From Escherichia coli (GTDB lineage: Bacteria; Pseudomonadota; Gammaproteobacteria; Enterobacterales; Enterobacteriaceae), in NCBI RefSeq assembly GCF_013315695.1, contig NZ_CP054353.1: DNA of 64,000 nt; one strand, 5' to 3'. A program made the position numbers and the translations under genes. Positions 19,221 through 57,977 of this stretch are shown here, piece by piece. The number at the start of each line of letters is the position of its first letter. Within the stretch, counting starts at the first letter, position 1. The notes under the pieces are model-generated. The model did not search any database and had not been told where the DNA came from. It saw only the letters and a list, made by a program, of their open reading frames with translations.

Positions 19221-19807
19221 GTGATGAACGCTACCAACAGCGTCAGCAGCGAGTGAAAGAAAAAGTCGATGCTCGTGTGGCCCAGGCCCAGGATGAACGC
19301 GGTATTATCATCGTCTTTACCGGCAATGGAAAAGGCAAAACCACCGCGGCATTTGGTACGGCAACACGCGCAGTTGGTCACGGAAAAAAAGTGGGCGTCG
19401 TGCAGTTTATTAAAGGCACCTGGCCTAATGGCGAACGAAATCTGCTGGAGCCGCATGGCGTTGAGTTTCAGGTAATGGCAACGGGCTTTACCTGGGATAC
19501 GCAGAATCGCGAGTCGGATACCGCCGCCTGCCGTGAAGTCTGGCAACATGCCAAACGGATGTTGGCAGATCCCTCACTGGATATGGTTTTGCTCGATGAG
19601 CTGACTTATATGGTCGCGTATGACTATTTGCCACCTGAAGAAGTGATTCAGGCGTTAAATGAACGTCCACATCAGCAAACCGTCATTATTACGGGTCGAG
19701 GCTGTCATCGGGATATACTCGAACTGGCGGATACGGTAAGTGAGTTACGCCCCGTGAAACATGCGTTTGATGCTGGCGTAAAAGCACAGATAGGGATTGA
19801 TTACTAA
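19217..19807 (+). CDS. btuR: cob(I)alamin adenosyltransferase
   Basis: 196-aa ORF with P-loop GNGKGKTTAAFG; overlaps yciK stop. Confidence 0.9.
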   Translation: MSDERYQQRQQRVKEKVDARVAQAQDERGIIIVFTGNGKGKTTAAFGTATRAVGHGKKVGVVQFIKGTWPNGERNLLEPHGVEFQVMATGFTWDTQNRESDTAACREVWQHAKRMLADPSLDMVLLDELTYMVAYDYLPPEEVIQALNERPHQQTVIITGRGCHRDILELADTVSELRPVKHAFDAGVKAQIGIDY

Positions 19808-19812
19808 GTGAA

Positions 19813-19846
19813 AGCACCTCAAAAGATTGCCTCTTGAGGTGCTTTA
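19813..19846. terminator. hairpin terminator downstream of btuR, at left edge of inserted islet
   Basis: Inverted repeat gcacctcaa...ttgaggtgc followed by T-rich tract. Confidence 0.5.
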
Positions 19847-19859
19847 ATCATAATTATAT

Positions 19860-20168
19860 TCAAGCGGCAATAGCAAAATTCAGAATGCGTATAATCTCAT
19901 TGAAATGTCTCTGATATGTTTCATGATTCTCAGCGTCAACATCTTCAATAAATAATATCAGTTCAGTAATTAGCGCATTAGCATCGTCATAATTTATCCC
20001 TGCTAACTCTGGCGAAGTTTCAGTACCATAGTTAATCGTCAGGTTGTTCATAACTGTGAGGATATGGATAAAATATTTATGACAAACATTACATGTGGTT
20101 TTATTGCCCAGGGTATTATACAGCATATCAAGTAATGCCAGTATTCTACGATTTTGCACATCGTTCAT
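19860..20168 (-). CDS. hypothetical 102-aa protein, co-operonic with upstream lipoprotein gene (islet)
   Basis: ORF 11 bp downstream of lipoprotein ORF stop; AT-rich; not recognised. Confidence 0.5.
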   Translation of the reverse strand: MNDVQNRRILALLDMLYNTLGNKTTCNVCHKYFIHILTVMNNLTINYGTETSPELAGINYDDANALITELILFIEDVDAENHETYQRHFNEIIRILNFAIAA

Positions 20169-20178
20169 AAAAAGCCTC

Positions 20179-21144
20179 CTATAACATTATTCCGCTGGCA
20201 ATAAGTAATTTTGCCAGCCCCTCAGACGCCTTTAACCCACTAATGACCTGTGCGCGCAATATCTCATTTAACCTTTTTTGTTCAGCTGCCGTGCGTGTTT
20301 TATTAACATATAAATTATTCAGATAATCACCCTTATCTATAAAGGCATTTAAAGCCTCAATTGCGGGCATGGCAGGTGCCGATGCCTGTAGCCTGGTTTC
20401 ATTCACATTGATTACTGAACTTAGAAACTCCTTCCTGTTTTTCAGAGTGTTAAACTCTGTATTCTTAGCGTTTTTAGATGCCGTACTATAATAAAACATA
20501 TTATCATGCACATTCGCAAAGGTATAATTTTCAATCTTATTGCTTTTTGTATAAATATCATTACGCAAAACTGTCATGTTCCCTATAAGTCTTACCCAGT
20601 TTTCATCTACCGTTTTGCCTATTTTTCCAGAATTGACTTTTATTATATATAACTCATTGAAATAATTTACCAAATCTTTAACCGCTGCTGCAGATTGTGC
20701 TAAATCTTTGCTATGTGAAATACCAAGTAGTGTTTGTGCGTTATTTGCGTGATCCAGAGCCTGTTTAAGTAATGCCACTTGCTGACTTTCTGTCGTTGCC
20801 ATGTCCTCATTCAGAAGTTCTACATAAGCGCTCATGCTATTAATGACTTCCATTGAAGCCAGTAATTTTTCTTTCTCGAAAGTGACTAATTGTACTTTTT
20901 TTGTATTTGGCCCAGGGCGCTGGCATAATTTTCCGCCATTACCATCACCGCCTATATCTATGGTATAATCAGGTCGCAATGCACAATCCGGATTAGTCGC
21001 ATAAAAATTAACAAGGAAGTTTTCACGAGAAGCATAGTATTGTTTAAAGAAACTTGCATTCGCCGCAACCGCCTTGTTACCCGCAGTAATAACAGTTTCA
21101 GCTTGTTCATTCTTCAATGCTTCGGTTGCACAACCTGAAAGCAT
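20179..21144 (-). CDS. hypothetical lipoprotein, 5' end (signal-peptide region) split by IS1
   Basis: ORF begins MLSGCATE (lipobox Cys); remaining N-terminal codons MIRYSGIFLSLL lie across IS1 at 21921..21957 on the minus strand; low GC. Confidence 0.6.
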   Translation of the reverse strand: MLSGCATEALKNEQAETVITAGNKAVAANASFFKQYYASRENFLVNFYATNPDCALRPDYTIDIGGDGNGGKLCQRPGPNTKKVQLVTFEKEKLLASMEVINSMSAYVELLNEDMATTESQQVALLKQALDHANNAQTLLGISHSKDLAQSAAAVKDLVNYFNELYIIKVNSGKIGKTVDENWVRLIGNMTVLRNDIYTKSNKIENYTFANVHDNMFYYSTASKNAKNTEFNTLKNRKEFLSSVINVNETRLQASAPAMPAIEALNAFIDKGDYLNNLYVNKTRTAAEQKRLNEILRAQVISGLKASEGLAKLLIASGIML

Positions 21145-21207
21145 TAACAGCGGGTGATGCTGCCAACTTACTGATTTAGTGTATGATGGTGTTTTTGAGG
21201 TGCTCCA

Positions 21208-21483
21208 GTGGCTTCTGTTTCTATCAGCTGTCCCTCCTGTTCAGCTACTGACGGGGTGGTGCGTAACGGCAAAAGCACCGCCGGACATCAGCGCTATCTC
21301 TGCTCTCACTGCCGTAAAACATGGCAACTGCAGTTCACTTACACCGCTTCTCAACCCGGTACGCACCAGAAAATCATTGATATGGCCATGAATGGCGTTG
21401 GATGCCGGGCAACAGCCCGCATTATGGGCGTTGGCCTCAACACGATTTTACGTCACTTAAAAAACTCAGGCCGCAGTCGGTAA
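21208..21483 (+). CDS. insA: IS1 InsA
   Basis: 91-aa [46 protein letters not shown]... (zinc finger plus HTH). Confidence 0.95.
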
Positions 21484-21905
21484 CCTCGCGCATACAGCCG
21501 GGCAGTGACGTCATCGTCTGCGCGGAAATGGACGAACAGTGGGGCTATGTCGGGGCTAAATCGCGCCAGCGCTGGCTGTTTTACGCGTATGACAGGCTCC
21601 GGAAGACGGTTGTTGCGCACGTATTCGGTGAACGCACTATGGCGACGCTGGGGCGTCTTATGAGCCTGCTGTCACCCTTTGACGTGGTGATATGGATGAC
21701 GGATGGCTGGCCGCTGTATGAATCCCGCCTGAAGGGAAAGCTGCACGTAATCAGCAAGCGATATACGCAGCGAATTGAGCGGCATAACCTGAATCTGAGG
21801 CAGCACCTGGCACGGCTGGGACGGAAGTCGCTGTCGTTCTCAAAATCGGTGGAGCTGCATGACAAAGTCATCGGGCATTATCTGAACATAAAACACTATC
21901 AATAA
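21402..21905 (+). CDS. insB: IS1 InsB (expressed as InsAB' transposase by -1 frameshift)
   Basis: 167-aa ORF overlapping insA 3' end, typical IS1 organisation. Confidence 0.9.
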
Positions 21906-22126
21906 GTTGGAGTCATTACCTTAACAGCGATAGAAATATTCCACTATATCTAATCATAACCCACCTCTTGACGTTGAGTTTATCTCAGATAATTAAATAG
22001 TAATGTGGCTATTTCCTGGTAATATTCATAAGCAAGTATGAAATTAAATTAAAATACTGCGACTATTTATCATACTTCAAATGAAGAAAAGGCCCCGCAG
22101 GGCCTTTATTTTATACTTAACTTAAA

Positions 22127-34629: not shown

Positions 34630-34921
34630 ATGAATCGTATTGAACATTATCATGACTGGTTACGTGACGCCCACGCAATGGAAAAGCAAGCCGAATCTAT
34701 GCTTTAATCCATGGCCAGCCGTATAGATAATTATCCTGAACTACGCGCTCGTATTGAACAACATCTTAGTGAAACCAAAAACCGATTGTTCAACTGGAAA
34801 CTATTCTTGATCGTAATGACATTTCACGTTCAGTCATTAAAGATTCCATGAGTAAAATGGCTGCGCTTGGGCAGTCAATCGGTGGTATATTTCCTTCTGA
34901 TGAAATAGTCAAAGGCTCTAT
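34630..34921 (+). pseudogene. yciE: yciE pseudogene: in-frame TAA at codon 26, 1-bp deletion frameshift, 3' end removed by IS1
   Basis: MNRIEHYHDWLRDAHAMEKQAESML* then YciE-like sequence continues in the same frame (SMASRIDNYPELRARIEQHLSETKN), then shifts frame (…SVIKDSMSKMAALGQSIGGIFPSDEIVKGS) until the IS1 end. Confidence 0.8.
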
Positions 34922-34976
34922 GGTGATGCTGCCAACTTACTGATTTAGTGTATGATGGTGTTTTTGAGGTGCTCCA

Positions 34977-35252
34977 GTGGCTTCTGTTTCTATCAGCTGT
35001 CCCTCCTGTTCAGCTACTGACGGGGTGGTGCGTAACGGCAAAAGCACCGCCGGACATCAGCGCTATCTCTGCTCTCACTGCCGTAAAACATGGCAACTGC
35101 AGTTCACTTACACCGCTTCTCAACCCGGTACGCACCAGAAAATCATTGATATGGCCATGAATGGCGTTGGATGCCGGGCAACAGCCCGCATTATGGGCGT
35201 TGGCCTCAACACGATTTTACGTCACTTAAAAAACTCAGGCCGCAGTCGGTAA
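34977..35252 (+). CDS. insA: IS1 InsA
   Basis: Identical translation to copy 1. Confidence 0.95.
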
Positions 35253-35674
35253 CCTCGCGCATACAGCCGGGCAGTGACGTCATCGTCTGCGCGGAAATGG
35301 ACGAACAGTGGGGCTATGTCGGGGCTAAATCGCGCCAGCGCTGGCTGTTTTACGCGTATGACAGGCTCCGGAAGACGGTTGTTGCGCACGTATTCGGTGA
35401 ACGCACTATGGCGACGCTGGGGCGTCTTATGAGCCTGCTGTCACCCTTTGACGTGGTGATATGGATGACGGATGGCTGGCCGCTGTATGAATCCCGCCTG
35501 AAGGGAAAGCTGCACGTAATCAGCAAGCGATATACGCAGCGAATTGAGCGGCATAACCTGAATCTGAGGCAGCACCTGGCACGGCTGGGACGGAAGTCGC
35601 TGTCGTTCTCAAAATCGGTGGAGCTGCATGACAAAGTCATCGGGCATTATCTGAACATAAAACACTATCAATAA
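35171..35674 (+). CDS. insB: IS1 InsB
   Basis: Identical translation to copy 1. Confidence 0.9.
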
Positions 35675-35888
35675 GTTGGAGTCATTACCGTGATAAACAT
35701 CCGGTTTCTTCCACCATCGCACCGGACAGGCGACTATGAGGGGACAACGCCGCGCTCCGTTAACGCGGTAAACCCCGGTGTGTATCGTTTTTGATTATCC
35801 CCGCACACTCGCGCAGAGGAGTCTCCCTGTCGGGCTGCGGTCTCTGTTAATGAGGGAATACAGCGACGATACGGCGCATCAACAAAAC

Positions 35889-36356
35889 TTATTTCAGGCA
35901 CTGAGTACGGATATATTCCTGCGCCCCTTCCAGTTGCTTCTGCATCGTCATCAGCCGCTCTCTGAGGGTGAAATAATCCCGTGTAACGGTGTCTGCCAGT
36001 TGGGGGCCGGTTGCATTATCCACGCGGGCGGTGCCGGTGGCTTCACGCACGGGACCTGGACAGGTGGCGTTGATACGCAGGCGCTTACGACCAGCGGCAA
36101 CGTCAGCGCGAAGAGTTTCATTTTCAGCTTTCGCATCAGCTAACTCCTTCGTGTATTTTGCATCGAGCGCAGCAACATCACGCTGACGCATCTGCATGTC
36201 AGTAATTGCCGCGTTCGCCAGCTTCAGTTCTCTGACATTTTTGTCGCGCTGGGCTTTGTAGGTAATGGCGTTATCACGGTAATGATTCAGCCCCAGACTA
36301 AGCGCACCACAGGCCACCAGCAGGGCAATGATGACCACGCACAGTACGCGGTTCAT
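35889..36356 (-). CDS. i-spanin Rz
   Basis: 155-aa ORF …[70 protein letters not shown]… closely resembles lambda Rz. Confidence 0.9.
35951..36136 (-). CDS. o-spanin Rz1 lipoprotein (embedded in Rz, +1 frame)
   Basis: 61-aa [25 protein letters not shown]…[32 protein letters not shown]; lipobox and Pro-rich, lambda Rz1-like. Confidence 0.85.
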
Positions 36357-36357
36357 T

Positions 36358-36456
36358 TCACCACCAGCGTATCTGACCGATGAAATAACCGGAGGCCATA
36401 ATCACAAACACCAGCCAGATAAGAATGAACTTCCAGGTGGATAATTTTTCAGCCAT
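36358..36456 (-). CDS. possible 32-aa single-TM peptide between endolysin and Rz
   Basis: [35 protein letters not shown] read from sequence; stop two bases before the Rz start codon; below ORF-track cutoff. Confidence 0.3.
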
Positions 36457-36654
36457 CACTCGAATCTCCCGAATCAGTTTGCTAAAATCAAACACACTTT
36501 CTCCTTTGACTTTTCCGGAGTCAGGAAACACAAAACCCCGCTTGGTGCCAACAAACGGGGTTTTTACTTTTATTCACTTACGTTTCGCCAGTTCGCAGGA
36601 TTTCGTGTTATCCGCCCGCGTGGCCATGCCTTATTTTTCAGCAAAATATTCTGC

Positions 36655-37188
36655 TTATCTGTCGATTCCCCAGCACGCCAGCGCGCTCTCCTGGTCACGA
36701 CGGGATACCTGACCATAACAGTTGTTTGAGCGGATACGGCAGTCTCTGCCACCGTCCTTAATCCACCAGCGAATCGCCTCACACGCTCCCCTGCGATCAC
36801 CTGCATTAATTCGTTTATAAAACGTCGACGGGAAACACTTACCGGGACCAATGTTGTACGGACAGAATGACGCGATCCCCGCTTTCTGGGGTTCACTCAA
36901 TGGCACTCTGATGTTTTTCTCCACCCATGCCAGCGCCTCATCACGCTCAATGGCGTTAACCCGGTCGCATTTTTCCTTCGACAACTTCATGCCCGGAACG
37001 ACAGGTTTGCCATCCACCAGGATGGCACCGCGGCAGATGGTCCAGATACCCGCACCATCACGGTATGCCGTGGTGTGGTTACCTTCCTTTTCATCCAGAA
37101 ACTGGTCGAGAATGTCAGGCGCAGGCGCACCAGCGGCAATCAGCGCCAGAACGGCAGCCGACAGGCCGTATCTGATTTTTGCGTTCAT
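36655..37188 (-). CDS. phage endolysin (GH24 lysozyme with N-terminal signal-anchor-release-like segment), RrrD-like
   Basis: 177-aa ORF MNAKIRYGLSAAVLALIAAGAPAPDILDQFLDEKEGNHTTAYRDGAGIWTICRG… closely resembles cryptic-prophage lysozyme RrrD. Confidence 0.9.
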   Translation of the reverse strand: MNAKIRYGLSAAVLALIAAGAPAPDILDQFLDEKEGNHTTAYRDGAGIWTICRGAILVDGKPVVPGMKLSKEKCDRVNAIERDEALAWVEKNIRVPLSEPQKAGIASFCPYNIGPGKCFPSTFYKRINAGDRRGACEAIRWWIKDGGRDCRIRSNNCYGQVSRRDQESALACWGIDR

Positions 37189-37293
37189 GGATATTTATCA
37201 GGATTTATCGGTTTCTGAGCCCTGGATATGTTTATCAGTTCCAGCCTGTTGCCTCAGGCTGCTAACAGGTCAATACAATCATGAGGATTATTT

Positions 37294-37566
37294 ATGGACA
37301 ATAACACCATTTCTCTACAGGAGTTGCTCGACAGCATTTCCAGGCTTCGGGAAGACGTGAATACCCTTACCGTCGCCTTCTCATATCTGGCATTCTCAAT
37401 TCCAAGGGAACAGATGCAATCAACGCTGGCATCAATCCAGTTTGAATCATGCAATCCCAAATGGTCTCAGGAACAACAAGACTCTTTCAGGCGGCTTGCT
37501 GTATTACTGGATGAAAAATATGCTGGTAAAATTACCATTTCGGCGGACTCTTCAGAGAACCCGTAA
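37294..37566 (+). CDS. hypothetical 90-aa protein, antisense-oriented inside lysis cassette
   Basis: ORF with strong SD (gaggatt, 6 nt before ATG); convergent with orf114, overlapping it by 35 nt. Confidence 0.45.
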   Translation: MDNNTISLQELLDSISRLREDVNTLTVAFSYLAFSIPREQMQSTLASIQFESCNPKWSQEQQDSFRRLAVLLDEKYAGKITISADSSENP

Positions 37567-37876
37567 TTATTCCCGGTAGTTTTCCTCTGTAGGTTATCAA
37601 CACATCCTGCGCCTCTAAAATTACGGGGCGCTTTTCCGGCGACTGCTCATCCCCTTCACATAACCCGGCAGCAACATCCAGGAAGACCTGTCTGATGCTC
37701 CTTCTGGCTGCTGCCTCATAAAACTCCAGCGCGGCACCTTCAACACGGTCCAGCGAGATGTCCAGGTCAAAAATTTCACCGTCAAAGCGTTTTTTGTCCC
37801 GTAACGCTAAAGTTACCGTAACTTTATTCTCAAAATTGCGGATCCCTTTCACAATCAGTTCATAGTTTTGAGTCAT
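37532..37876 (-). CDS. hypothetical 114-aa phage protein between holin and endolysin (position of ydfR-type genes)
   Basis: ORF immediately downstream of holin stop, co-directional with lysis genes. Confidence 0.55.
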   Translation of the reverse strand: MTQNYELIVKGIRNFENKVTVTLALRDKKRFDGEIFDLDISLDRVEGAALEFYEAAARRSIRQVFLDVAAGLCEGDEQSPEKRPVILEAQDVLITYRGKLPGIITGSLKSPPKW

Positions 37877-37880
37877 TGAA

Positions 37881-38096
37881 TTACTCTCCCCGTGCAGCCT
37901 TACGACGGTCCTCTCTGATTTTGAAATACAGGTTAGTCAGATATGTCAGCAGCCCAAACAGCAGACTCCCCAGCACGCCTATTGCCGCCCACTGAGACGG
38001 GGAAACCCTGTCCAGCAACTGCAGGAACCAGTAGCCCGTTCCCACCGCTGACGTGGTGTATGACACACCTGTTGTGATTTTTTCCATCTGGTACAT
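37881..38096 (-). CDS. phage 21-type pinholin S with dual-start motif
   Basis: [71 protein letters not shown] resembles S21 (MKSMDKISTG…); start set at dual-start Met within ORF 37881..38174. Confidence 0.85.
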
Positions 38097-38246
38097 ACCC
38101 CGTCTCCCGTTATCCGGAAGCTGACAACAATAAAAAAAGCCACCAGTTAAGTACTGATGGCTCTGATAACTCATGCAGGCATCTCAGACGACCCACTGAC
38201 ACTACCGGTGAGTTTAACGATACCTTCCATTTGGCTGGCTCACTTT

Positions 38247-40100
38247 TTATGATGATGCCGGTGCATTTATCTCCAGCACCAGACTTTCTATCTCAACGCC
38301 ATACGCTGCATTTTTGGTAATATCCGTCAGCGTCAGCGCATTCAGCCCCAGTGTCAGACTGTCTTTTATGACCTGGAATGCCGGGCCAGCCACTCCATTC
38401 AGTTTCGGAGTAACCGTGGCACTGCCGGCGGTGAACACCAGCTCCAGCGTCTGCCAGTCGTTACTGTAATTCCCGAACTCGCCCAACTTTGTGTTTCCTG
38501 CTTTCTTGTGATGCATCAGATTCAGTTTGCCGTCTGTGGTCTGGGTGAAGAACGACATCAGGAACGGGTTACCAGTCCCGGTCATCGCCACGACGTCAGG
38601 TAACGCTACATCGGTATACAGATAAATTCCCAGACCGAACTGGTTGTTGGTCAGTGCGCCTGACAGTCGAAACTTACAGCTCAGTCTGCCACCCCGTGTC
38701 AGCAGGGAGACTGCGTCATCCACCGGGCGCGTCAGGGACCAGGCTTTATTGCTCTGCTTGGTGATCTTAAATACACCATCTGACAACTGAATTCCGCCAT
38801 TCTTAATGCTCCAGCCCTGCGCAGCAGCGTCTCCGGCTGTCGGCAACAGGGAGATTGTGCGTATGGATGCATCTTCAGACGGCCCCGATGGCGTGTCGCC
38901 GCCGGGCGAGGGTTTGATTTCCGGTGCCTTACCACTAATGAAGGCTAAGGTGCGACCGGCTACGTTCAGAATAGCAGTTGCCATACGATCGGGAATAATG
39001 CCACGACGCGCCCATGAGCTGAAATGCGTCGGGCGATTTGATGATACCCAGTTTTTGTTCGTTCGGGATGCCGAACCGTAATAACCAGACCCGGCAATAT
39101 CAGGATCTTCTGACGGGTTGTTTGTCGGTGTATTAACTCCGCTACCATCGGTCATAAAGGGAACAAAATAAATCTGCTGGGATTCTTTACCTTTATATGC
39201 ACCATATACCACTTCATATTGCGTACCGTGTTCTTGTTTCCACGCGTATGTCGTGTCGCCACAAATCCAGGGGACTGATGCCGGACTTCCACCGTGACAC
39301 TGCGCCGCCAGCCCGGCAAGGTCAGCACGGAACTGCTGTACCATTGCAAGAAATGCTGCTGGCTGCTGGGCGTAACTGGCATTCGTCATATCGAATTCCC
39401 CCTGCATCCAGCATATCGCCAGCAAAACGTTTTTCGGGTTTTTCTGCAATGCTGCCTTCGTGCGGAAAAGCAGATCCTGATATAACGGCTTACCCACTCC
39501 CCAGCGAGCCGAATCCTGACTGGCTCCCGTGGACTCGCTGAATGTCCCCTCCGTGCCCTGGGTGAATGCCGAACCACCACGACAGCATGGTACCAGCAGG
39601 ATCCCCGCATTATTAGGGATATACGGAAGCAGTTTTTTGGCAATATGTAAGCCCTGTCCGACACAGCCGTACTGCCCTTTGCTCAGGTCAGCCCGGGGAT
39701 GGTTAATCGTACTCATATCCTGAACATCATGCAGACAATGGTCAGCAGGAATGATGTCGTTAAATACGCATACTTCACCACCGGGAGTCACTGTGTTACG
39801 ACGGGCCAGTTGCTTAATGCGCGGATGGGGCGCATCGTATGAATCCGGAAGCGGAAGCCCTTCACCGTAAGCCATGGCATTGGATTGCCCGGCCAGTACG
39901 ATGACGTAGTACCACTCCGGCTCAGTTGCACCACTGACGACCACATCACCTTCTGCTGCAATCGCCTGCATCAGGGTATAAGGGGTTATGGCCACCGGAC
40001 TACCAAACGGCTGCCAGCCCTCCTTCAGTTTTTGTGTCAGTCGTTTCGCAAGGTCTGACGGCGATGCCGCCCTGACCACGTCATAGTGTTTAAATGCCAT
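38247..40100 (-). CDS. prophage sialate O-acetylesterase NanS-p (N-terminal DUF1737-like, SASA/SGNH esterase domain)
   Basis: 617-aa ORF; N-terminus MAFKHYDVVRAASPSDLAKRL…; VIVLAGQSNAMAYGEG esterase motif; located between tRNAs and holin as in Stx-type phages. Confidence 0.8.
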   Translation of the reverse strand: MAFKHYDVVRAASPSDLAKRLTQKLKEGWQPFGSPVAITPYTLMQAIAAEGDVVVSGATEPEWYYVIVLAGQSNAMAYGEGLPLPDSYDAPHPRIKQLARRNTVTPGGEVCVFNDIIPADHCLHDVQDMSTINHPRADLSKGQYGCVGQGLHIAKKLLPYIPNNAGILLVPCCRGGSAFTQGTEGTFSESTGASQDSARWGVGKPLYQDLLFRTKAALQKNPKNVLLAICWMQGEFDMTNASYAQQPAAFLAMVQQFRADLAGLAAQCHGGSPASVPWICGDTTYAWKQEHGTQYEVVYGAYKGKESQQIYFVPFMTDGSGVNTPTNNPSEDPDIAGSGYYGSASRTNKNWVSSNRPTHFSSWARRGIIPDRMATAILNVAGRTLAFISGKAPEIKPSPGGDTPSGPSEDASIRTISLLPTAGDAAAQGWSIKNGGIQLSDGVFKITKQSNKAWSLTRPVDDAVSLLTRGGRLSCKFRLSGALTNNQFGLGIYLYTDVALPDVVAMTGTGNPFLMSFFTQTTDGKLNLMHHKKAGNTKLGEFGNYSNDWQTLELVFTAGSATVTPKLNGVAGPAFQVIKDSLTLGLNALTLTDITKNAAYGVEIESLVLEINAPASS

Positions 40101-40330
40101 GAATCCTCCCGGGCGGGATAATGTTGTGAGTCAGATAAGGAGCAGGCTGAAGTCCGGAAGTTACAGGACAATGGCAGAAGGGAGACTACAGCCCGCAATT
40201 CGAAAAAGACCGCGCAGTTGCGCAGAGTGATTACTATGGGGTATTATTCGCCAGCTGAAATATTACTTCACGTTTTATTGTTTATTCCTTGCCGCCCGCG
40301 TCTCCCAGCGCGGGCTTTTTTTGTCCATAA

Positions 40331-40568
40331 GAAAGCCCCTCCGGAGAGGGGCTAAAGCCGCGTATCTGTATCATCATGCACATGGTGCCGGGTGCCTCCC
40401 GGTGAGTTCAGCCCGGTGCCACTAAACCCGCGTCATTCTCGTTTTGATAATCAGAGATTATACCGTCACCAGTCGCCCCTCCGCTCAGGGGGATTCACCA
40501 TGCGAAATTTTTTTAACAAATGCCCAGTCTGACAGGCAACTGTCAACTTACTGAATTGTGAGCAACAT
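40331..40568. repeat. hairpin-rich noncoding repeat unit, copy A
   Basis: Shares blocks aaagcccctccggagaggggct, catggtgccgggtgcctcccggtga, cccctccgc.cagggggattcaccatgc, ttttaacaaa, ctgaattgtgag with copy B. Confidence 0.7.
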
Positions 40569-40815
40569 AGCATTTAACGGGGAACCTGTTTTCTGCAGTA
40601 AAAAGGCCCACCGGAGCGGATGGGCCTGGAAGGATAGCGGTCATGTGATGCCGGTTTCCCGGTAACTCAGCACCGGTATCTGAGTCAACGTTTTCTCTAC
40701 TGGGTCATTTCCGATACGCCCTGCCTGCTGACAGGCTTTCATCACATCTGAAAATATAGCACCCTGACTGATACTGTAGTACCTAAGGTTCCAGAAACTG
40801 TGATGTATCCGGCAC

Positions 40816-41036
40816 AGAAAAGCCCCTCCGGAGAGGGGCTGGAGAGTGGCGCTATGTGCCATTGCATGGTGCCGGGTGCCTCCCGGTGAATTCAGTACCA
40901 GCACCTGAATCCGCGATTATCCCATATACCTACTCGCTGATTGCCCCTCCGCACAGGGGGATTCACCATGCCAGTTTCTTTTAACAAACTCCCCGCAAAC
41001 CAGACAACAGTCAACCGCCTGAATTGTGAGACATTT
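40816..41036. repeat. hairpin-rich noncoding repeat unit, copy B
   Basis: Degenerate direct repeat of copy A (~485 bp period); a third partial copy of the ccgg-hairpin block lies at ~40690..40740. Confidence 0.7.
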
Positions 41037-41074
41037 AAAAAAAGCCCGCAAAAGCGAGCCAGGGAAAATAAGTG

Positions 41075-41151
41075 TGGCGCGTTGTACTGGATTCGAACCA
41101 GTGACCGATTGCTTAGAAGGCAATTGCTCTGTCCGGCTGAGCTAACAACGC
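41075..41151 (-). tRNA. tRNA-Arg (anticodon UCU)
   Basis: Manual fold: acceptor GCGTTGT/ACAACGC, D-arm GCTC..GAGC, anticodon stem ATTGC/GCAAT with loop CTTCTAA, T-arm ACTGG TTCGAAT CCAGT, CCA end. Confidence 0.9.
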
Positions 41152-41164
41152 AGGATACAGATAA

Positions 41165-41241
41165 TGGACCGCCTTCGGGGACCCGAACTCCGCGCAACCA
41201 GCTTCGAAAGCTGGCGCTCTTTCCTGATGAGCTAATGGCGG
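41165..41241 (-). tRNA. tRNA-Arg-like (anticodon UCG), possibly degenerate
   Basis: Perfect anticodon stem CCAGC/GCTGG with loop TTTCGAA, but one mismatch each in acceptor and T stems and T-loop TTCGGGT lacks the conserved A58. Confidence 0.5.
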
Positions 41242-41248
41242 TATGTGA

Positions 41249-41324
41249 TGGTGGCCCTTGCTGGATTTGAACCAGCGACCTGGCGATTATGAGTCGCTCG
41301 CTCTCACCACTGAGCTAAAGGGCC
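41249..41324 (-). tRNA. tRNA-Ile2/Met type (anticodon CAU), ileX/ileZ-like
   Basis: GGCCCTTTAGCTCAGTGGTGAGAGCGAGCGACTCATAATCGCCAGGTCGCTGGTTCAAATCCAGCAAGGGCCACCA; near-identical to remembered E. coli tRNA-Ile2 (k2CAU). Confidence 0.85.
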
Positions 41325-41373
41325 GGGAGCAGAATAATAATGGTGCGTAATTAATTCTGCAATCTCATCCGTT

Positions 41374-42423
41374 TCAAACGATTAAATCCTGAACTTCCCT
41401 GACTGTCTGCTCAAAACGTCCGGTCTCCAGTTCAACGCCAATCGCACGACGCCCAAGCGCCAGTGCCGCTTTTACCGTTGAACCTGAGCCCATAAAAAAA
41501 TCTGCAACCAGGTCACCCGGACGACTGCTTGCGCTGATTATCTGCTGCAGCATTTCTGCCGGTTTTTCGCACGGATGTTTCCCGGGATAGAACTGCACCG
41601 GTTTATGTGTCCACACATCCGTGTACGGCACCTGCGCCGTCACACCAAAATACCGCCGCAGATGCTTATATTCACTCTGCAGCTCCACATACTGCCGGTT
41701 CAGTGACGTATACGTATCCACCAGCTGGTGGTGGGGCTTTTCCAGTTCACCGCGCTGATGTTTCTCTTCTGCCACCCGGGCAAACAGCGACTGTAATTTC
41801 AGATAATCGCTTTCGTTCGGTAGCTGCCACTGACTGGCACTGAACCAGTGCGACACCATGTTTTTCTTTCCTGTGGCATCTGCAATCTGTTTTGCCGTTA
41901 TCCCCAGGGCAGCGCGCGCATCACGAAAGTAAGAAATCAGCGGGGCCATCACATGCTGTTTCAGTGCACTGCCCTTCGCCGCATACCCGGCATCTTTCGG
42001 ACGATACGGCCCCTGATAATGTTCCGCGAACAGAATGCGCTCTGTGGCGGGGAAATACGCCCGCAGGCTTTCCTTGTTGCATCCGTTCCAGCGTCCGGAC
42101 GGCTTCGCCCAGATAATATGGTTCAGCACACTGAAGCGTTCACGCATCATGATTTCGATATCAGATGCCAGGCGATGACCACAGAACAGGTAAAGACTTC
42201 CGACAGGTTTCAGCACCCGCCAGAACTGCGCCAGACACTGGTCCAGCCACTTCAGGTAATCATCGTCGCCCTTCCACTGGTTATCCCAGCCCTCAGGCTT
42301 CACTTTAAAGTACGGCGGGTCCGTGACTATCAGGTCAACAGAATTTTCGGGTAACGACCGGATAAATTCCAGGCAGTCGGCGTTGATTAACTCACAACTG
42401 GATATTTTTACAGTATTAAGCAT
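41374..42423 (-). CDS. orphan DNA methyltransferase (N6-adenine/N4-cytosine class, DPPY motif)
   Basis: 349-aa ORF with DPPY catalytic motif (LIVTDPPYF) and C-terminal AdoMet-binding FxGSGST motif; no adjacent restriction endonuclease gene. Confidence 0.8.
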   Translation of the reverse strand: MLNTVKISSCELINADCLEFIRSLPENSVDLIVTDPPYFKVKPEGWDNQWKGDDDYLKWLDQCLAQFWRVLKPVGSLYLFCGHRLASDIEIMMRERFSVLNHIIWAKPSGRWNGCNKESLRAYFPATERILFAEHYQGPYRPKDAGYAAKGSALKQHVMAPLISYFRDARAALGITAKQIADATGKKNMVSHWFSASQWQLPNESDYLKLQSLFARVAEEKHQRGELEKPHHQLVDTYTSLNRQYVELQSEYKHLRRYFGVTAQVPYTDVWTHKPVQFYPGKHPCEKPAEMLQQIISASSRPGDLVADFFMGSGSTVKAALALGRRAIGVELETGRFEQTVREVQDLIV

Positions 42424-42573
42424 GGATCATTAAGCCTGTCTCTGATAGGCTCATTCTGCTTTTGCGCAAAGCAGTGGGCCTGAGGTTTGCTTGTGAACCC
42501 AACGCATGAGCAGATGGCTGGTGGGTGCCCCTAACACCCACCAGCCGCCCATTTACCACAAATAAAAAAGCCT

Positions 42574-42858
42574 TCAGGACTGAAGGCGTCTGTAACAACC
42601 GAACTGATAGTCTGCCAGACCCGCCATAACCAGCTGGGTCAGTATTAACTGGCAGCGTTCGCGTGAAAGGTAAGTATTCTGCGCTATCTCCCCGACTGTC
42701 GCCGGTTCGGTAACGCTTAATTCATTAAACACCACTCTGGCGGTTTCTGTCATATCCTGCTGTTTTAGCATGTCTTTTTCCTTTTTCCGGTTAACGTGAC
42801 ATACCAATAACTCTTGTCGAAAAAGCCAGCAAGCTGAAAGACCCGTATTCGCAACCAC
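42574..42858 (-). CDS. hypothetical small phage protein (possible HTH)
   Basis: ORF between the Q-like gene/terminator and the methyltransferase; start may be an internal Met (MLKQQDMTETAR…). Confidence 0.4.
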   Translation of the reverse strand: MVANTGLSACWLFRQELLVCHVNRKKEKDMLKQQDMTETARVVFNELSVTEPATVGEIAQNTYLSRERCQLILTQLVMAGLADYQFGCYRRLQS

Positions 42859-42896
42859 CAGCGTGTTTACTGTACTGACGCGATTTTGGGCATAAA

Positions 42897-42930
42897 AAAA
42901 AACCGCCTGACGGCAGTTTTTTTTCTTACT
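42897..42930 (-). terminator. candidate tR'-like terminator downstream of Q-like gene
   Basis: A-run, short GC hairpin (ccgcctgacggcag), T-run; reads as terminator on both strands. Confidence 0.45.
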
Positions 42931-42985
42931 TTGCCATCGCGTACAAAATCGGCAAAATATCAGATTTATATGAAACGTACGCTAT

Positions 42986-43675
42986 TTAATTGACTTTTGC
43001 AATATCTCGTCGTGAAAAAGTCGCTTTTTGTTGCGCTCTTATTTTCACGGTGCAAATCACAGATTCTCTATCGAGACTCTTAAAAATATCGCACATCTCA
43101 CGCCAGTAGTTCGCATAATTATGGCTCCAGTTATCAGGCTTAACTCCACACAGTCTGGCAAGCTCCTGTCTCTGGTAGACCTCACACCCGGTAATCCATC
43201 CTCTGACATCCTGTGCCGCCAGCCAGATCAACTTCTTCACGCGCTCCTGCGTTTTCCCTGCAATTTTTCTGGTGCCGTACCGGGTTTTAAATTCATTCCA
43301 CACCCACTGCGTTATCGCGATCTGATATTCCCAACAAATACTCCCGCTGTAACACCACAACAACCAGGCTTTATGATGTTCTTCAAGAGACAGAACAGCC
43401 CGCCGCCACGATGATGTCGAAAACTCAACCGGACTGACGAGAGGAATTGACACCCCCTTCGCCAGCGATTGCTTTCCCGGGATTGGTGGATTATCCCGCG
43501 TTATCATTTTTCCAGTCACTTCATCGCGGTACCGGATTTTTTTACGCCTGTAACGCCCTGTATCAAACATGGCATTCTCCTGCCAGGCCTCAAGCTGCCC
43601 TTTTGTTGATCCACTCAAATCGGCGGTGGCAATCATGAGTTGCTCACGAACAAACTGTAAATACTGGTTATTCAT
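42986..43675 (-). CDS. putative late-gene antiterminator (Q-like), assigned by position
   Basis: 229-aa ORF immediately downstream of rusA and upstream of terminator and late genes; sequence itself not confidently recognised. Confidence 0.4.
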   Translation of the reverse strand: MNNQYLQFVREQLMIATADLSGSTKGQLEAWQENAMFDTGRYRRKKIRYRDEVTGKMITRDNPPIPGKQSLAKGVSIPLVSPVEFSTSSWRRAVLSLEEHHKAWLLWCYSGSICWEYQIAITQWVWNEFKTRYGTRKIAGKTQERVKKLIWLAAQDVRGWITGCEVYQRQELARLCGVKPDNWSHNYANYWREMCDIFKSLDRESVICTVKIRAQQKATFSRRDIAKVN

Positions 43676-44037: not shown

Positions 44038-45093
44038 TTATGCTTTCCACTTCAGAACACCCGAATTTCTCGCGTGCATTAAAAAACGAATCAGCAACAA
44101 CAGCTGGCTGCCGTGTTTTTCTTCAAAATCTTTTACCCCGGCGTGTAGTTCGCTATGGCATTTACGGCACAGCGGAATAACAAACAAATCATCAGCCTTT
44201 GTTCCCATCCCTCCCAGTCCATGACCAATGATGTGATGCGGATCATCTGCCTGATTGCCACACGTCATGCATTTCTGCGTTTTTACCCAACGCGTGTATA
44301 CAGGCATCTCTTCCCGTTGTGATTTCTGGCGCTGGAGATACTGAGCCGGTGACTCCGGATCAACGGCAATGCTGACCACCGTCTTTTCCTGTGGCGGGTT
44401 TTGCTGGTGGGCGTGAGGCAGCGGCGCAAGATTTTTTGTGCGCTGCTTCAGTATGCTGGTGGCGGTCTGCTCTCCCGGTACGATGTCGCTTTCACGGTAC
44501 ATTGAGCGGATTTTTTCCGCACGCAACCCCAGCGAACGACGTAATACCGCTTCCGGTAGCGCGTCCGCCACCTGATTGCGGACCGCCCACCAGGATAATT
44601 CAGCCAGCGATAATTCCCGTTCCTGCGAGCCATTCATTGCATGGCGTATGACGTCAATCATCCATGCAGACAGGTTTTGGTGAGCAAGTTGCCCGAGTGA
44701 TTCGGAGGTCTGGTCGCGCAGCTGGTTGTCGCAGTGCCAGCACAACACCATTGCGCCGGTACCATAACGGTGAATGACGGTTTCACTGTGGTGATAATCG
44801 CCGTGTGGCCACTGGCAGGATTTAACATGGCGCAGTAACCAGTCAGACAATGCGCCAGCGCCACCAGCAGCACGAATCACTCGTTCGTCGCTGAAAAATG
44901 GCAGTAATGATTTATCCTCCGCCAGCGGCTGGCGAACGGCAGGAACGACCCCGGACGGCAGATTACGCATGCTTTTCGGTTCCGGCTCCACCAGTACCCG
45001 GGTATTGTGGAATACCGGCATGGATTCACGGCCCGGCTTAACGATCACCAGCCCGAGTTCCGGTACCAGAACAGGTCGAAGTAATACCCGCAC
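44038..45093 (-). CDS. nin-region protein, DUF968-like with Cys/His-rich C-terminal region
   Basis: 351-aa ORF; C-terminus …CMTCGNQADDPHHIIGHGLGG…CRKCHSELH…; translationally coupled to upstream orf90. Confidence 0.45.
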   Translation of the reverse strand: MRVLLRPVLVPELGLVIVKPGRESMPVFHNTRVLVEPEPKSMRNLPSGVVPAVRQPLAEDKSLLPFFSDERVIRAAGGAGALSDWLLRHVKSCQWPHGDYHHSETVIHRYGTGAMVLCWHCDNQLRDQTSESLGQLAHQNLSAWMIDVIRHAMNGSQERELSLAELSWWAVRNQVADALPEAVLRRSLGLRAEKIRSMYRESDIVPGEQTATSILKQRTKNLAPLPHAHQQNPPQEKTVVSIAVDPESPAQYLQRQKSQREEMPVYTRWVKTQKCMTCGNQADDPHHIIGHGLGGMGTKADDLFVIPLCRKCHSELHAGVKDFEEKHGSQLLLLIRFLMHARNSGVLKWKA

Positions 45094-45534: not shown

Positions 45535-45690
45535 TTACTCCTCAGGTTCGTAAGCTGTGAAGACAGCGACCTCCGTCTGGCCGGTTCGGAGTCGTACCTC
45601 GCAGAGGTCTTTCCTCGTTACCAGTGCCGTCACTATGACGGTTAAACAGATGACGATCAGGGCGATTAACATCGCCTTTTGCTGCTTCAT
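45535..45690 (-). CDS. hok: Hok/Gef-family type I toxin (HokD/RelF-like)
   Basis: MKQQKAMLIALIVICLTVIVTALVTRKDLCEVRLRTGQTEVAVFTAYEPEE, essentially the remembered HokD sequence; extended upstream frame (to 45747) corresponds to mok-like leader. Confidence 0.9.
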   Translation of the reverse strand: MKQQKAMLIALIVICLTVIVTALVTRKDLCEVRLRTGQTEVAVFTAYEPEE

Positions 45691-45927
45691 AGCCTGCTTC
45701 CCCTTGCCTTTCGGCACGTAAGAGGCTAACCTACATTTGTGAGACATAGATTGGGCCTCAGATTAATGTTAAGCGTCTTGCAGGACGCGAAATGTTAACT
45801 GGGGCTTTTCTCTATCTGCCTTTCAGTGTTCATGCCTGAGACAGATAGCCTCAAGCACCCGCAGCCATTCTACTTAACTCACGTCACCTCGCCAATATGA
45901 AATCAATCAGAAAGGTGATCCATAAAA

Positions 45928-46614
45928 TCACTCCTTCTCTTCTTTTCCGTAGTGGAGTTGGCCAATTTTGATAAGAGGGCGTCCCTGAGATTTGCGGTGT
46001 AGATTGGTATCGCGCAGAGAATACACACAGCCACAATATTCCTGCTGATAGAATTTTTCGCGCTTGCTGATTTCAATCATACGGGACGAGCCGCCCTGCT
46101 TGCGCCAGTTATAATCCCAGTACACCATACCCGGATAATGCGCAACAGCTCGCCGCCCACACTCGTTAACCTGCTGCATATTTTTCCAGCGTGAAATGCC
46201 CAGTGAACTGCTGATCACACTGAAACCATTTTCAGCAGCGTACAACGCTGTCCGCTCAAAACGCATGTCAAAACACATGGTACAACGGATCCCCCTCTCA
46301 GGCTCCCATTCCATTCCTTTGGCACGTTCAAACCAGTTGTCGGTGTCGTAATCAGCATCGATAAACGGCACGCCGTGTTGTTCAGCAAAGCGAATATTTT
46401 CATCCTTACGAATTAAATACTCTTTCTGAGGATGAATGTTCGGGTTGTAGAAAAAGATGGTGTAGTCGATTCCCGAGGCCTGAAGCGCCTCCATCACTTC
46501 ACCGGAACATGGAGCACAGCAAGAGTGCAGTAGTAGTTTGTTTGCCCCGTTTGGGAGCTCCAATTTAGGCCGTTTGAAATCAGCAATAGTCATAAATATT
46601 TTTATTGGGGTCAT
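45928..46614 (-). CDS. QueH-like (DUF208) putative epoxyqueuosine reductase
   Basis: 228-aa ORF with [11 protein letters not shown] motif plus additional Cys clusters (CTMCFD, YCGC) recalled as QueH/DUF208 signature; not verified by search. Confidence 0.5.
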
Positions 46615-52056: not shown

Positions 52057-52588
52057 GGGTCAGGTGGAGTGCGTGCGCCGGACACGGGTGAGCATCCGGC
52101 ACTGACAGCTTACTGAAAGGATATGTCCCTGAAAAGTCAGGGCATAACGCGAAAGCGCACGGCGAAATTGGTCTCTCTGTACGGTGTCGTTAAATTTAGT
52201 TCGACCGTGCGCTTCCGGTTGTGGCACTCCGCGAAATGGCGCGGCGGTAAGTATGGCTGGGGTTTCCTCCATTGCTCCAGAAAATGCACCGGGTTGTCAG
52301 GTTGACCATACGCTTAAGTGACAACCCCGCTACAACGCCCTCTGTTATCAATTTTCTGGTGACATTTGGCGGTATCAGTTTTACTCCGTGACTGCTCTGC
52401 CGCCCTTTTTAAAGTGAATTTTGTGATGCGGTGAATGCGGCTATGCGCACGCGGAACAGTTAAAGCAGTAAGGCGGTATTTTACGGGCGTAACGAGCATC
52501 AACTAACCCGGCGTTAATTGTTAACTGGTTAACGTCACCTGGAGGCACCAGGCACTGCATCACAAAATTCATTGTTGAGGACGCGATA

Positions 52589-55593: not shown

Positions 55594-55842
55594 ATGGCAA
55601 GACTTATTCTGCTCACTGAGTGGGCAAAAGAGGAATTCAGTGAACCGGTCCCTACTCCGAGTACGTTAAGTAAATACGCTAAAGCCGGAATGATATTTCC
55701 TCTCCCCAAAAAAGTTGGAAGACGCTGGCGAGTGGATCCGCAAGCTCGCTTTGTCGGAATGGTAAACAAGCCGGAGGTGATCGCCACAGATCACCCTGCT
55801 TTGAAGAGGATACTGGAAGATGGCGCGCCCGCGAAAATATAA
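55594..55842 (+). CDS. xis: excisionase-like protein
   Basis: 82-aa ORF immediately upstream of and overlapping the integrase gene. Confidence 0.6.
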   Translation: MARLILLTEWAKEEFSEPVPTPSTLSKYAKAGMIFPLPKKVGRRWRVDPQARFVGMVNKPEVIATDHPALKRILEDGAPAKI

Positions 55843-56950
55843 AACCGATGTTCCGGGATTATCTCCGTATTTTGACAAAAGAAATAACAAAGTTTACTGG
55901 CGTTACAGGCATCCCATAACAGGCAAAAATCACGGTCTCGGCAGTATTGACCAGAAACTGGCAGAAACTATTGCAGCAGAAGCGAACAGCCGTCTTGCCC
56001 GGCAGCAAATGGAACAAATGCTCAGTCTGCAGGAGAAAATTATTAGTGATACCGGCGGTTCATCAACCGTTACCATTTTTCTGAATAATTACAGAAAAAT
56101 TCAACAGGAAAGATATGAAAACGGCGAGATCAAACTCAACACGCTGAAACAGAAAGCAGCTCCTCTCAGGGTATTTGATGAACGTTTTGGCACCAGACCG
56201 TTAGATGCCATAACCGTAAAAGATGTGGTATCAGTACTGGAAGAGTACAAGGCCAGAGGACATAACAGAATGGGACAAATTTTCAGGAAAGTACTGATCG
56301 ATGTTTTCCGGGAAGCTCAGCAAACGGGCGATGTCCCGCCAGGCTTTAACCCTGCAGAATCGGCAAAAAAACCGCAGGTGCGGATATCAAGACAGCGACT
56401 GACTTTTGATGAGTGGATGATGATTTATAACGCAGCGGAAAAGGATGGTTACTTTTTACAGCGCGGTATGCTGCTGGCACTGATGACAGGCCAGCGCCTT
56501 TCAGATATTTGCAAAATGCAATTTTCGGATATCCGGGATGGTTATCTTCATGTCGAACAGCAAAAAACAGGAACCCGGATTGCCATCCCTCTGGCTCTGC
56601 GTTGCGATAAATTAAATCTCACCCTGGATGATGTGGTGTCATCCTGCCGCGATTGCGTTCTTAGTCCGTGGCTATTGCACCACCATCACGCGAAAGGGAC
56701 AGCTAAGCGCGGCGGGATGGTTAAGCCAGCAACATTAACCGTTGCATTTAAAAAAGCCCGGGATTCTGTGGATTACAACTGGCGTGCTAATGGCACCCCT
56801 CCCTCTTTCCATGAGCAGAGATCTTTATCAGAGCGATTGTTCAGAGAGCAGGGGGTTGATACCAAAATTTTGCTAGGCCATTCGAATCAAAAAATGACCG
56901 ATATTTACAACGACGCACGCGGTAAGGAATGGAAAAAACTGGTCATTTGA
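55820..56950 (+). CDS. int: tyrosine recombinase (lambda-type integrase)
   Basis: 376-aa ORF with catalytic-region motifs (…LMTGQRLSDICKMQFSDI…, …HHHAKGTAKRGG…, …LLGHSNQKMTDIY…); 3' end 35 bp from ompW stop. Confidence 0.85.
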   Translation: MARPRKYKTDVPGLSPYFDKRNNKVYWRYRHPITGKNHGLGSIDQKLAETIAAEANSRLARQQMEQMLSLQEKIISDTGGSSTVTIFLNNYRKIQQERYENGEIKLNTLKQKAAPLRVFDERFGTRPLDAITVKDVVSVLEEYKARGHNRMGQIFRKVLIDVFREAQQTGDVPPGFNPAESAKKPQVRISRQRLTFDEWMMIYNAAEKDGYFLQRGMLLALMTGQRLSDICKMQFSDIRDGYLHVEQQKTGTRIAIPLALRCDKLNLTLDDVVSSCRDCVLSPWLLHHHHAKGTAKRGGMVKPATLTVAFKKARDSVDYNWRANGTPPSFHEQRSLSERLFREQGVDTKILLGHSNQKMTDIYNDARGKEWKKLVI

Positions 56951-56984: not shown

Positions 56985-57623
56985 TTAAAAACGATATCCT
57001 GCGGAGAACATAAACACCCACGGATCCAGTCGTACCGAGTCTTTTACGGTAGTAACACCAGATTTGTACTTAGCCGTGGTATCGATATCCATGTACCACA
57101 CTGACATGTTAACCAACCAGTCACGGTTAATCAGATAATCAACCCCCACCTGCCCGGCAGCTCCCCAGGAATCTTTCAGACTGAGATCGGAAAGCCCCGC
57201 CTCTTTGCCATGATCGTTAAATCCATTATCAAAGAAGGTGGTGTAGTTAATACCTGCCCCAACGTAAGGACGGAATTTGCTGCTGGCATCACCAAAATAC
57301 CACTGCGCCATCAGTGTTGGCGGCAGATGATGAACGGTTGCAATATCGCCGGTCGCCCGGGTGCCGATTTTATGGCGGAACGGCGTCGCAGCCAGTAATT
57401 CCACACCAATGTTGTCGGTCGCCATATAAGTAAACGTCAGGCCCAGTTGCGTGTTATTGGTCACGCTGAATCCACCCAGACTTCCTAACGTACCACCAGC
57501 ACCTTCTGTTGGACGTACGGTTGCAGACCCTGCACGCATAAAAAATTCGCCTGCTTCATGCGCATAGGCACTGCCAGAGAGAAGAGTTGTTACTGCCAAA
57601 GCCGCCACTGTTAACTTTTTCAT
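56985..57623 (-). CDS. ompW: outer membrane protein W
   Basis: Start at MKKLTVAALAVTTLLSGSAYA… within ORF 56985..57701; C-terminus …SAGYRF. Confidence 0.9.
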   Translation of the reverse strand: MKKLTVAALAVTTLLSGSAYAHEAGEFFMRAGSATVRPTEGAGGTLGSLGGFSVTNNTQLGLTFTYMATDNIGVELLAATPFRHKIGTRATGDIATVHHLPPTLMAQWYFGDASSKFRPYVGAGINYTTFFDNGFNDHGKEAGLSDLSLKDSWGAAGQVGVDYLINRDWLVNMSVWYMDIDTTAKYKSGVTTVKDSVRLDPWVFMFSAGYRF

Positions 57624-57977
57624 ATCCGCTCCGTCGTTATGGTTATAAAAACGTGACGAATATACCCACATTGGAGTAACAAATGATCCTACACAGATCA
57701 CATTATATATGATAATTCACCCTTTATTGATCTGGATTAATTTAGAAGTTGCACTGTGAATCCTGGTTAATGTGATTTAAATCAATTCCTATATATTTCA
57801 CTACGCAAACATTAACTCGCTCGCCACTTGCTGCGGTTTGCCCATAGCTTAGACCCGCAATTACCTCCGCTTTACAAAGATATGCTTTTCCATACAAGAC
57901 CTGATGCTGCCACCCGAGGCTTAACCAGGGTACAATTGCCCGCTAATTAACACCTGCATAAAACTCAAGGAGAGTGC

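Follow-up and report, generated by a model that had tools for sequence, protein, structure and literature searches.

A predicted M.EcoGI/M.EcoGII-type adenine methyltransferase in the late operon of a truncated lambdoid prophage of Escherichia coli

What is a DNA methyltransferase gene without a restriction partner doing beside the tRNA genes of an Escherichia coli prophage? We asked this of a gene in a 64,000-nt stretch of E. coli DNA, hereafter the window. A preliminary description had read the gene as a phage methyltransferase that could protect against host restriction and, if expressed from the prophage, could alter the epigenetic state of the host. The answer that we consider very probable is that it encodes a late-expressed, anti-restriction enzyme of the M.EcoGI/M.EcoGII type, which belongs to a lambdoid prophage and is now a passenger in the remnant of that prophage.

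The coding sequence (41374..42423, minus strand) runs from ATG to TGA over 349 codons, and in the list of open reading frames it has exactly the boundaries given in the preliminary description. The start codon is without a clear Shine-Dalgarno sequence. The 349-aa product (WP_000935536.1) matches the Pfam family PF01555 (N6_N4_Mtase) over residues 29-340 with E=2.7e-44; the score is 152.2 bits against a cut-off of 26.7, and profile positions 1-219 of 221 are covered. The protein also matches MTase_II, the PADLOC model for Type II methyltransferases (E=4e-167), and PHROG DNA-methyltransferase families at about 1e-104. The DPPY motif on which the gene had first been recognized is indeed there: catalytic motif IV, D-P-P-Y, occupies aa 35-38 (42310..42321, minus strand), and the AdoMet-binding motif I, F-M-G-S-G, occupies aa 310-314 (41482..41496, minus strand). 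We checked both base by base. They are intact in the window and invariant across all eight aligned homologues, and the inactive catalytic site that had been named as a possible refutation is not seen.

FMGSG lies C-terminal to DPPY with the recognition domain between them, which is the motif order of the beta class. The N- and C-terminal halves, which an insert of about 165 residues separates, align with solved beta-class structures (8urk/9c3u, M.RsrI, CcrM and MboIIA). We rejected a Dam-type (alpha-class, GATC) orphan methyltransferase because the order of FxGxG and DPPY is reversed in the window protein. Among homologues of 81-98% protein identity, pairwise dN/dS values are 0.07-0.16, indicating that the family is under purifying selection.

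Fang et al. are said to have first reported M.EcoGI and M.EcoGII, in 2012. As given in the supplement of PMC11551740, the M.EcoGII sequence has machine-reading errors (HH for HI, RRR for RR, TKVPQ for TYKPVQ); uncorrected, it gives 330/350 identity to the window protein, and we set it aside. We looked up eight corrected variants by exact match. One of them is the protein of the O104:H4 strains 2011C-3493 and C227-11 (AFS73976.1, AKE83937.1), and this sequence was used for comparison. The window protein is identical to it at 333 of 349 positions without gaps (95.4%). A second copy in O104:H4 (WP_000935531.1) is identical to the window protein at 342 of 349 positions, with no indels (98.0%). This second copy is in turn identical to M.EcoGII at 333 of 349 positions, which equals the published figure for M.EcoGI against M.EcoGII (PMC5778455); by that figure, rather than by accession number, it is probably M.EcoGI. 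The window protein shares a 90% cluster with the probable M.EcoGI and carries a private A74V change; M.EcoGII is in a different 90% cluster.

By its sequence, then, the gene is an M.EcoGI/M.EcoGII-type beta-class DNA adenine N6-methyltransferase. It was found in 1965 of 5426 complete E. coli genomes (about 36%), with up to six copies per genome. The exact protein occurs on at least 1000 contigs, far beyond chance, and its 90% cluster has 5932 members. The best phage DNA match is phage 1720a-02 (95.5%), followed by many Stx2 phages, in which the gene lies between Q and the tRNAs, just upstream of stxAB. The M.EcoGII paper also mentions phage 1720a-02 and calls its methyltransferase 'very similar' (PMC5778455). 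On these matches, the window gene is an ordinary copy of an already known, characterized and very widespread family and not a new orphan enzyme.

The surroundings of the gene follow one order on one strand: Q, terminator, 65-aa ORF, terminator, methyltransferase, tRNAs, stx or sRNA copies, esterase, holin, lysozyme and Rz. In the window, this strand is the minus strand throughout. The late antiterminator Q (229 aa; 42986-43675; PF06323, E=1.4e-83, and RefSeq annotation) is followed, 72 nt past its stop codon, by a tR'-like terminator, which consists of a hairpin (42914-42902) and a run of nine T (42892..42914 in all). Next comes a 65-aa winged-helix-like ORF (42574..42771) that matches phrog_331 (PHROG E=1e-37) and, weakly, Pfam TrmB (E=0.006). 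Directly after it lies a second terminator-like hairpin of 7 bp (42587-42570) with a run of six T (42560..42587 in all); its stem co-varies in the mEp460/cdtI group. A 150-nt leader (42424..42573), structured by RNA fold, then separates the 65-aa ORF from the methyltransferase.

Downstream, the first tRNA begins 49 nt past the methyltransferase stop codon. The gene had been placed between the late terminator and the tRNAs, and the position is as described, with two terminator-like hairpins upstream. The tRNA cluster (41075..41324), identified by ARAGORN, Rfam and annotations, comprises Ile2(CAU), Arg(UCG) and Arg(UCU) and is of the ileZ-argN-argO type of Stx phages. Its first member, with a CAT anticodon (41249-41324), is tRNA-Ile/ileZ in RefSeq and in the phiP27 record and Met(CAT) in ARAGORN; the others are Arg-TCG (41165-41241) and Arg-TCT (41075-41151). 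The surviving rest of the late operon (35889..40100) holds a nanS-p type esterase (38247-40100), holin (37881-38096), lysozyme (36655-37188) and Rz (35889-36356). Between the tRNAs and the esterase, in the slot of stxAB in Stx phages, we also observed two full copies of the STnc100 sRNA (165 and 136 bits; 40323-40532 and 40810-41000), both of which close with the same terminator-like hairpin, at a spacing of about 487 nt, and a weak third match at 40598-40771, all on the minus strand.

The enzyme had been called an orphan, and our searches agree. No restriction endonuclease partner was found among the neighbours by Pfam, PHROG or PADLOC, nor in the RefSeq annotation of the whole prophage remnant. 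The neighbours are Q, the 65-aa winged-helix ORF, the tRNAs and the esterase, so the adjacent endonuclease that defines a Type II restriction-modification system is lacking. One protein was considered as a partner and rejected. This 351-aa DUF968 protein (44038-45093, minus strand) has a C-terminal HNH-nuclease-like domain (Pfam HNHc_6, E=4e-7; PHROG 'HNH endonuclease', E=8e-167). It lies 1.6 kb off, beyond Q and directly beside RusA, and has no PADLOC match.

Related phages show the same arrangement. We scanned IMG/VR and obtained 80 loci; their methyltransferases are all at least 95% identical, and the following counts describe that range of relatedness. The 65-aa ORF is present upstream in all 77 related loci with enough upstream sequence, and the tRNAs lie next to the methyltransferase in 72 of 73 relatives. 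The cassette occurs behind at least four types of Q, and stx2A is found in only seven of the 80 loci. Where phages have different Q genes, similarity starts exactly at the tR'-like hairpin and extends from there through the 65-aa ORF, the second terminator, the 150-nt leader and the methyltransferase. Judging from these alignments, the 65-aa ORF, the leader of about 150 nt, the methyltransferase and the tRNAs are a conserved late-operon cassette.

When would such a gene be expressed? In lambdoid phages, transcription from pR' reaches stx and other genes in this position only when Q drives RNA polymerase through the terminators. From that background and the position of the gene, we infer that the methyltransferase is a late gene, silent in the lysogen. 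A crude and insensitive consensus scan of the minus strand from 40000 to 43200 returned no sigma-70-like promoter, with no convincing -35/-10 pair. Only about 95 nt separate the Q stop codon from the tR'-like terminator (42892-42985, minus strand). A constitutive pR' transcript ending at that terminator would be a short RNA, comparable to the 6S RNA of lambda and the StxS sRNA. A search of the leader and the pR'-tR' region with Rfam at a permissive threshold gave only sub-threshold matches (isrK, 19.6 bits; STnc370, 39.4 bits; P26, 24.2 bits), of which the weak isrK match concerns this short interval after Q. The silence that we propose for the window gene would agree with the silence in the lysogen reported for M.EcoGI and M.EcoGII (PMC5778455).

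The mechanism that we propose is as follows. The methyltransferase would be a late gene that shares a transcription unit with the tRNAs and lysis genes and follows Q and the two terminator-like hairpins. It would be off in the lysogen and transcribed only after induction, once Q carries RNA polymerase through the terminators. The enzyme would use S-adenosylmethionine to methylate adenines in any sequence context. In a complete phage, replicating phage DNA would be heavily methylated before packaging, and the progeny would then be shielded from the many Type I, II and III restriction systems that are blocked by adenine methylation. In the window, the gene is an intact passenger with no virion to protect, left after an IS1-associated deletion; on induction of this remnant, the cell would make the enzyme along with the lysis proteins shortly before it lyses. 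In the literature that we searched, we found no report of transcription of the family on induction or of hypermethylated virion DNA of these phages, and no direct test of an anti-restriction purpose.

The 65-aa ORF and the leader raise a further question, namely whether they act on the methyltransferase. At the protein level, conservation of the ORF extends to homologues with as little as 53% identity. It lies about 150 nt upstream of the methyltransferase also in the mEp460, cdtI and phiP27 phages, and the length of the leader spacer is conserved in the Stx2a, phiP27, mEp460 and cdtI phages. The RNA of 42415-42600 folds to -75.1 kcal/mol (z=-4.26), and none of 200 shuffles was as stable. Within the leader, a 12-bp hairpin (42516-42546, minus strand) with no T-run behind it stays paired in phiP27, mEp460, Stx2c and cdtI, a small and closely related sample, despite two changes to G.U pairs. 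Pairing that is kept through G.U changes would point to constraint at the RNA level. A 4-codon upstream ORF that overlaps the start codon was also considered and was dropped, as its ATG is TTG or CTG in relatives.

The 65-aa protein may be a regulator of the enzyme or a partner to it, and together with the leader it could form an undescribed control module with the methyltransferase as its output. By analogy with a controller protein or a riboregulator, the protein and the leader might jointly gate the translation or stability of a toxic, non-specific enzyme; alternatively, they might steer the enzyme to phage rather than host DNA. We think such a module unlikely. No control circuit of this kind for M.EcoGII-type genes was described in the literature that we searched.

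The preliminary description had taken the gene to be phage-borne, and it does lie in a lambdoid prophage, which is integrated next to ompW (integrase, 55820-56950; ompW, 56996-57634). The window is chromosomal DNA, and we took the annotation of this prophage from NZ_LR898874.1 (strain MSB1_4I), which is 100% identical over window positions 24000-48000. Counting from the integrase, the prophage carries xis, exonuclease, dicB/DicF, repressor-type regulators, replication genes, QueH, hokD/sok, the DUF968 protein, RusA and Q. After Q come the 65-aa ORF, the methyltransferase, the tRNAs, the nanS-p type esterase, holin, lysozyme and Rz. The hokD/sok toxin-antitoxin pair (45535-45860; sok, 120 bits) and dicB with the DicF sRNA (52354-52405; 77 bits) are as in the Qin prophage of K-12. 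The QueH gene (45928-46614) encodes an epoxyqueuosine reductase.

Right after Rz, the prophage ends at an IS1A (34977..35674, plus strand; flanks 34630-36356), as seen from the annotation of NZ_LR898874.1 compared with strain CE10. Everything distal to Rz is gone, including the terminase, head and tail genes, plus part of yciE, and the IS1A abuts the truncated yciE. Elsewhere in the window, at about 18950-21910 between cobO and rluB, the annotation of the identical record shows an ISKpn26 (IS5-like), a 321-aa hypothetical protein and another IS1A inserted. In strain CE10, the same prophage, with the same allele (WP_000935536.1), extends into genes for terminase, portal, capsid and tail. Because the prophage in the window stops at the IS1A, whereas that of CE10 runs on into virion genes, it is a defective remnant of about 21 kb that is unable to make virions.

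Does this truncation make the gene a functionless relic, unexpressed or useless and awaiting decay? The prophage has no terminase, head or tail genes and thus no virion DNA to protect, and other genes are frameshifted in sister prophages. The state of the gene itself argues the other way: its ORF and all of its motifs are intact, the identical allele recurs on the 1000 or more contigs mentioned above, and the surrounding Q, tRNAs and lysis genes are intact as well. We judge this reading to be decidedly unlikely. It bears on the usefulness of the gene in this strain, and it is compatible with our main explanation of what the enzyme is.

That explanation draws on the reported activity of the family. 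When cloned, M.EcoGI and M.EcoGII are reported to methylate every adenine, without a target motif, and M.EcoGII methylates up to 99% of adenines in vitro (PMC5778455). Reconstructed ancestors, far more divergent than the window protein, show motif-free adenine methylation on RNA and also methylate DNA (PMC11551740). The non-specific binding has been ascribed to a positively charged surface of the recognition domain together with a charged interdomain linker (PMC11551740). By extension from M.EcoGI, M.EcoGII and the reconstructed ancestors, the window allele would be expected to methylate adenines in any sequence context. The family being reported as non-specific, a comparison with REBASE or a methylome analysis should return no target motif.

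An anti-restriction role has been assumed for the M.EcoGI/M.EcoGII family (PMC5778455; 2025 EcoSal review, PMC12707154). Protection against host restriction, as first suggested for this gene, therefore agrees with the literature for the family; in this strain, however, the presumed role cannot operate, as the remnant lacks packaging and virion genes and there is no virion DNA to protect. Heavy methylation is also not an unmixed benefit, since plasmid DNA modified by M.EcoGII reduces transformation of E. coli by 4-5 orders of magnitude. Expression of M.EcoGII is itself reported to slow growth (PMC5778455).

The NCBI name 'site-specific DNA-methyltransferase' suggests another reading, in which the protein is a site-specific orphan methyltransferase that the prophage expresses and that regulates the host epigenetically, as Dam and CcrM do. 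M.PflMI, the closest characterized site-specific relative, shares the overall predicted fold (PMC11551740), and M.EcoGIII and other phage methyltransferases do change host expression. The window protein, however, has 95-98% gapless identity to two enzymes that are reported as non-specific. Its 16 differences from M.EcoGII spare DPPY, FxGxG, NHIIWAK and HPCEKP. It keeps the charged linker, with 9 K/R and 8 D/E in aa 205-262 and no gaps relative to M.EcoGII, and this linker is absent from M.PflMI according to PMC11551740. The gene is also preceded by two terminator-like hairpins and no detectable promoter. Finally, silence in the lysogen holds for both M.EcoGI and M.EcoGII, and no additional methylation motif is seen in O111 strains that carry homologues. 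We consider a site-specific regulator very improbable; this silence, the slowed growth with M.EcoGII and the O111 strains speak against the earlier suggestion of an altered host epigenetic state.

We would give hardly any weight to the idea that the real in vivo substrate is RNA (the adjacent tRNAs or late mRNAs) rather than phage DNA: M.EcoGII does act on RNA and on RNA/DNA hybrids in vitro, and three tRNAs lie 49 nt away, as tRNAs do in nearly all close relatives (72/73), but its activity on RNA is about 100-fold below that on DNA (V0 0.12 versus 11.1; PMC11551740, Table S3), no tRNAs neighbour the homologues of mEp460 and cdtI (81% identical), and the methyltransferase uses few of the rare codons read by those tRNAs. 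A link between the methyltransferase and the tRNAs through rare codons was likewise rejected. AGA, AGG, CGA and AUA together make up 1.4 per 100 codons in the methyltransferase, below Q (5.2) and the 65-aa ORF (6.2), and more distant homologues lack the tRNAs.

We thus return to an M.EcoGI/M.EcoGII-type enzyme as the preferred reading. As a discovery it carries little weight: the family was characterized in 2012-2018, and M.EcoGII is sold as a reagent. Its value is for annotation. In about 36% of complete E. coli genomes, genes that carry the label 'site-specific DNA-methyltransferase' are of the M.EcoGI/M.EcoGII type; they should yield no methylation motif and will count as inactive in methylome surveys.

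How does the window gene compare with known systems? The closest is M.EcoGI, from a prophage of O104:H4 strain C227-11, which likewise has 349 aa. The probable M.EcoGI copy has the same neighbours as the window gene (65-aa ORF, tRNA-Ile/Arg/Arg, esterase and holin) and differs from the window protein by seven substitutions: V74A, A145D, Y147D, A148E, S152R, S212A and V246A. The Q upstream also differs, being of a 273-aa type there and of a 229-aa type in the window. M.EcoGII is, like the window enzyme, prophage-borne and of equal length, with no indels, and the two share DPPY, FxGxG, HPCEKP and the helix-turn-helix-like recognition region. Eight of the 16 substitutions between the two proteins fall in the charged two-helix interdomain linker (aa 236-263).

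Among phages, the 'DNA methylase' of 1720a-02, of Stx2a, Stx2c, Stx2d and Stx2e phages, and of phiP27, mEp460 and cdtI has 81-95% protein identity to the window enzyme. In these phages too, the gene is flanked by Q and the lysis genes and is preceded by the same 65-aa ORF and a spacer of about 150 nt. What follows varies: after the tRNAs, Stx phages have stxAB where the window prophage has STnc100 copies, and in mEp460 and cdtI, which lack adjacent tRNAs, the methyltransferase is followed directly by the holin. All of these phages are complete, whereas the window prophage is truncated.

More distant comparisons mark where the likeness ends. M.PflMI (CCANNNNNTGG), which PMC11551740 gives as the nearest site-specific relative and which is compared here by the description in that paper, is also a beta-class enzyme; its predicted Rossmann core and its recognition domain are similar. 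The same paper describes it as lacking the highly charged linker and as belonging to a restriction-modification system. Phage Mu Mom, M.EcoVT2Dam, T4 Dam and P1 Dmt are also DNA adenine-modifying enzymes encoded by phages, and several such enzymes are credited with shielding phage DNA from restriction. They differ from the window enzyme in kind: Mom is not a methyltransferase of its fold, and the Dam-type phage enzymes belong to the alpha class and are specific for GATC; Stx phages encode theirs in the early region.
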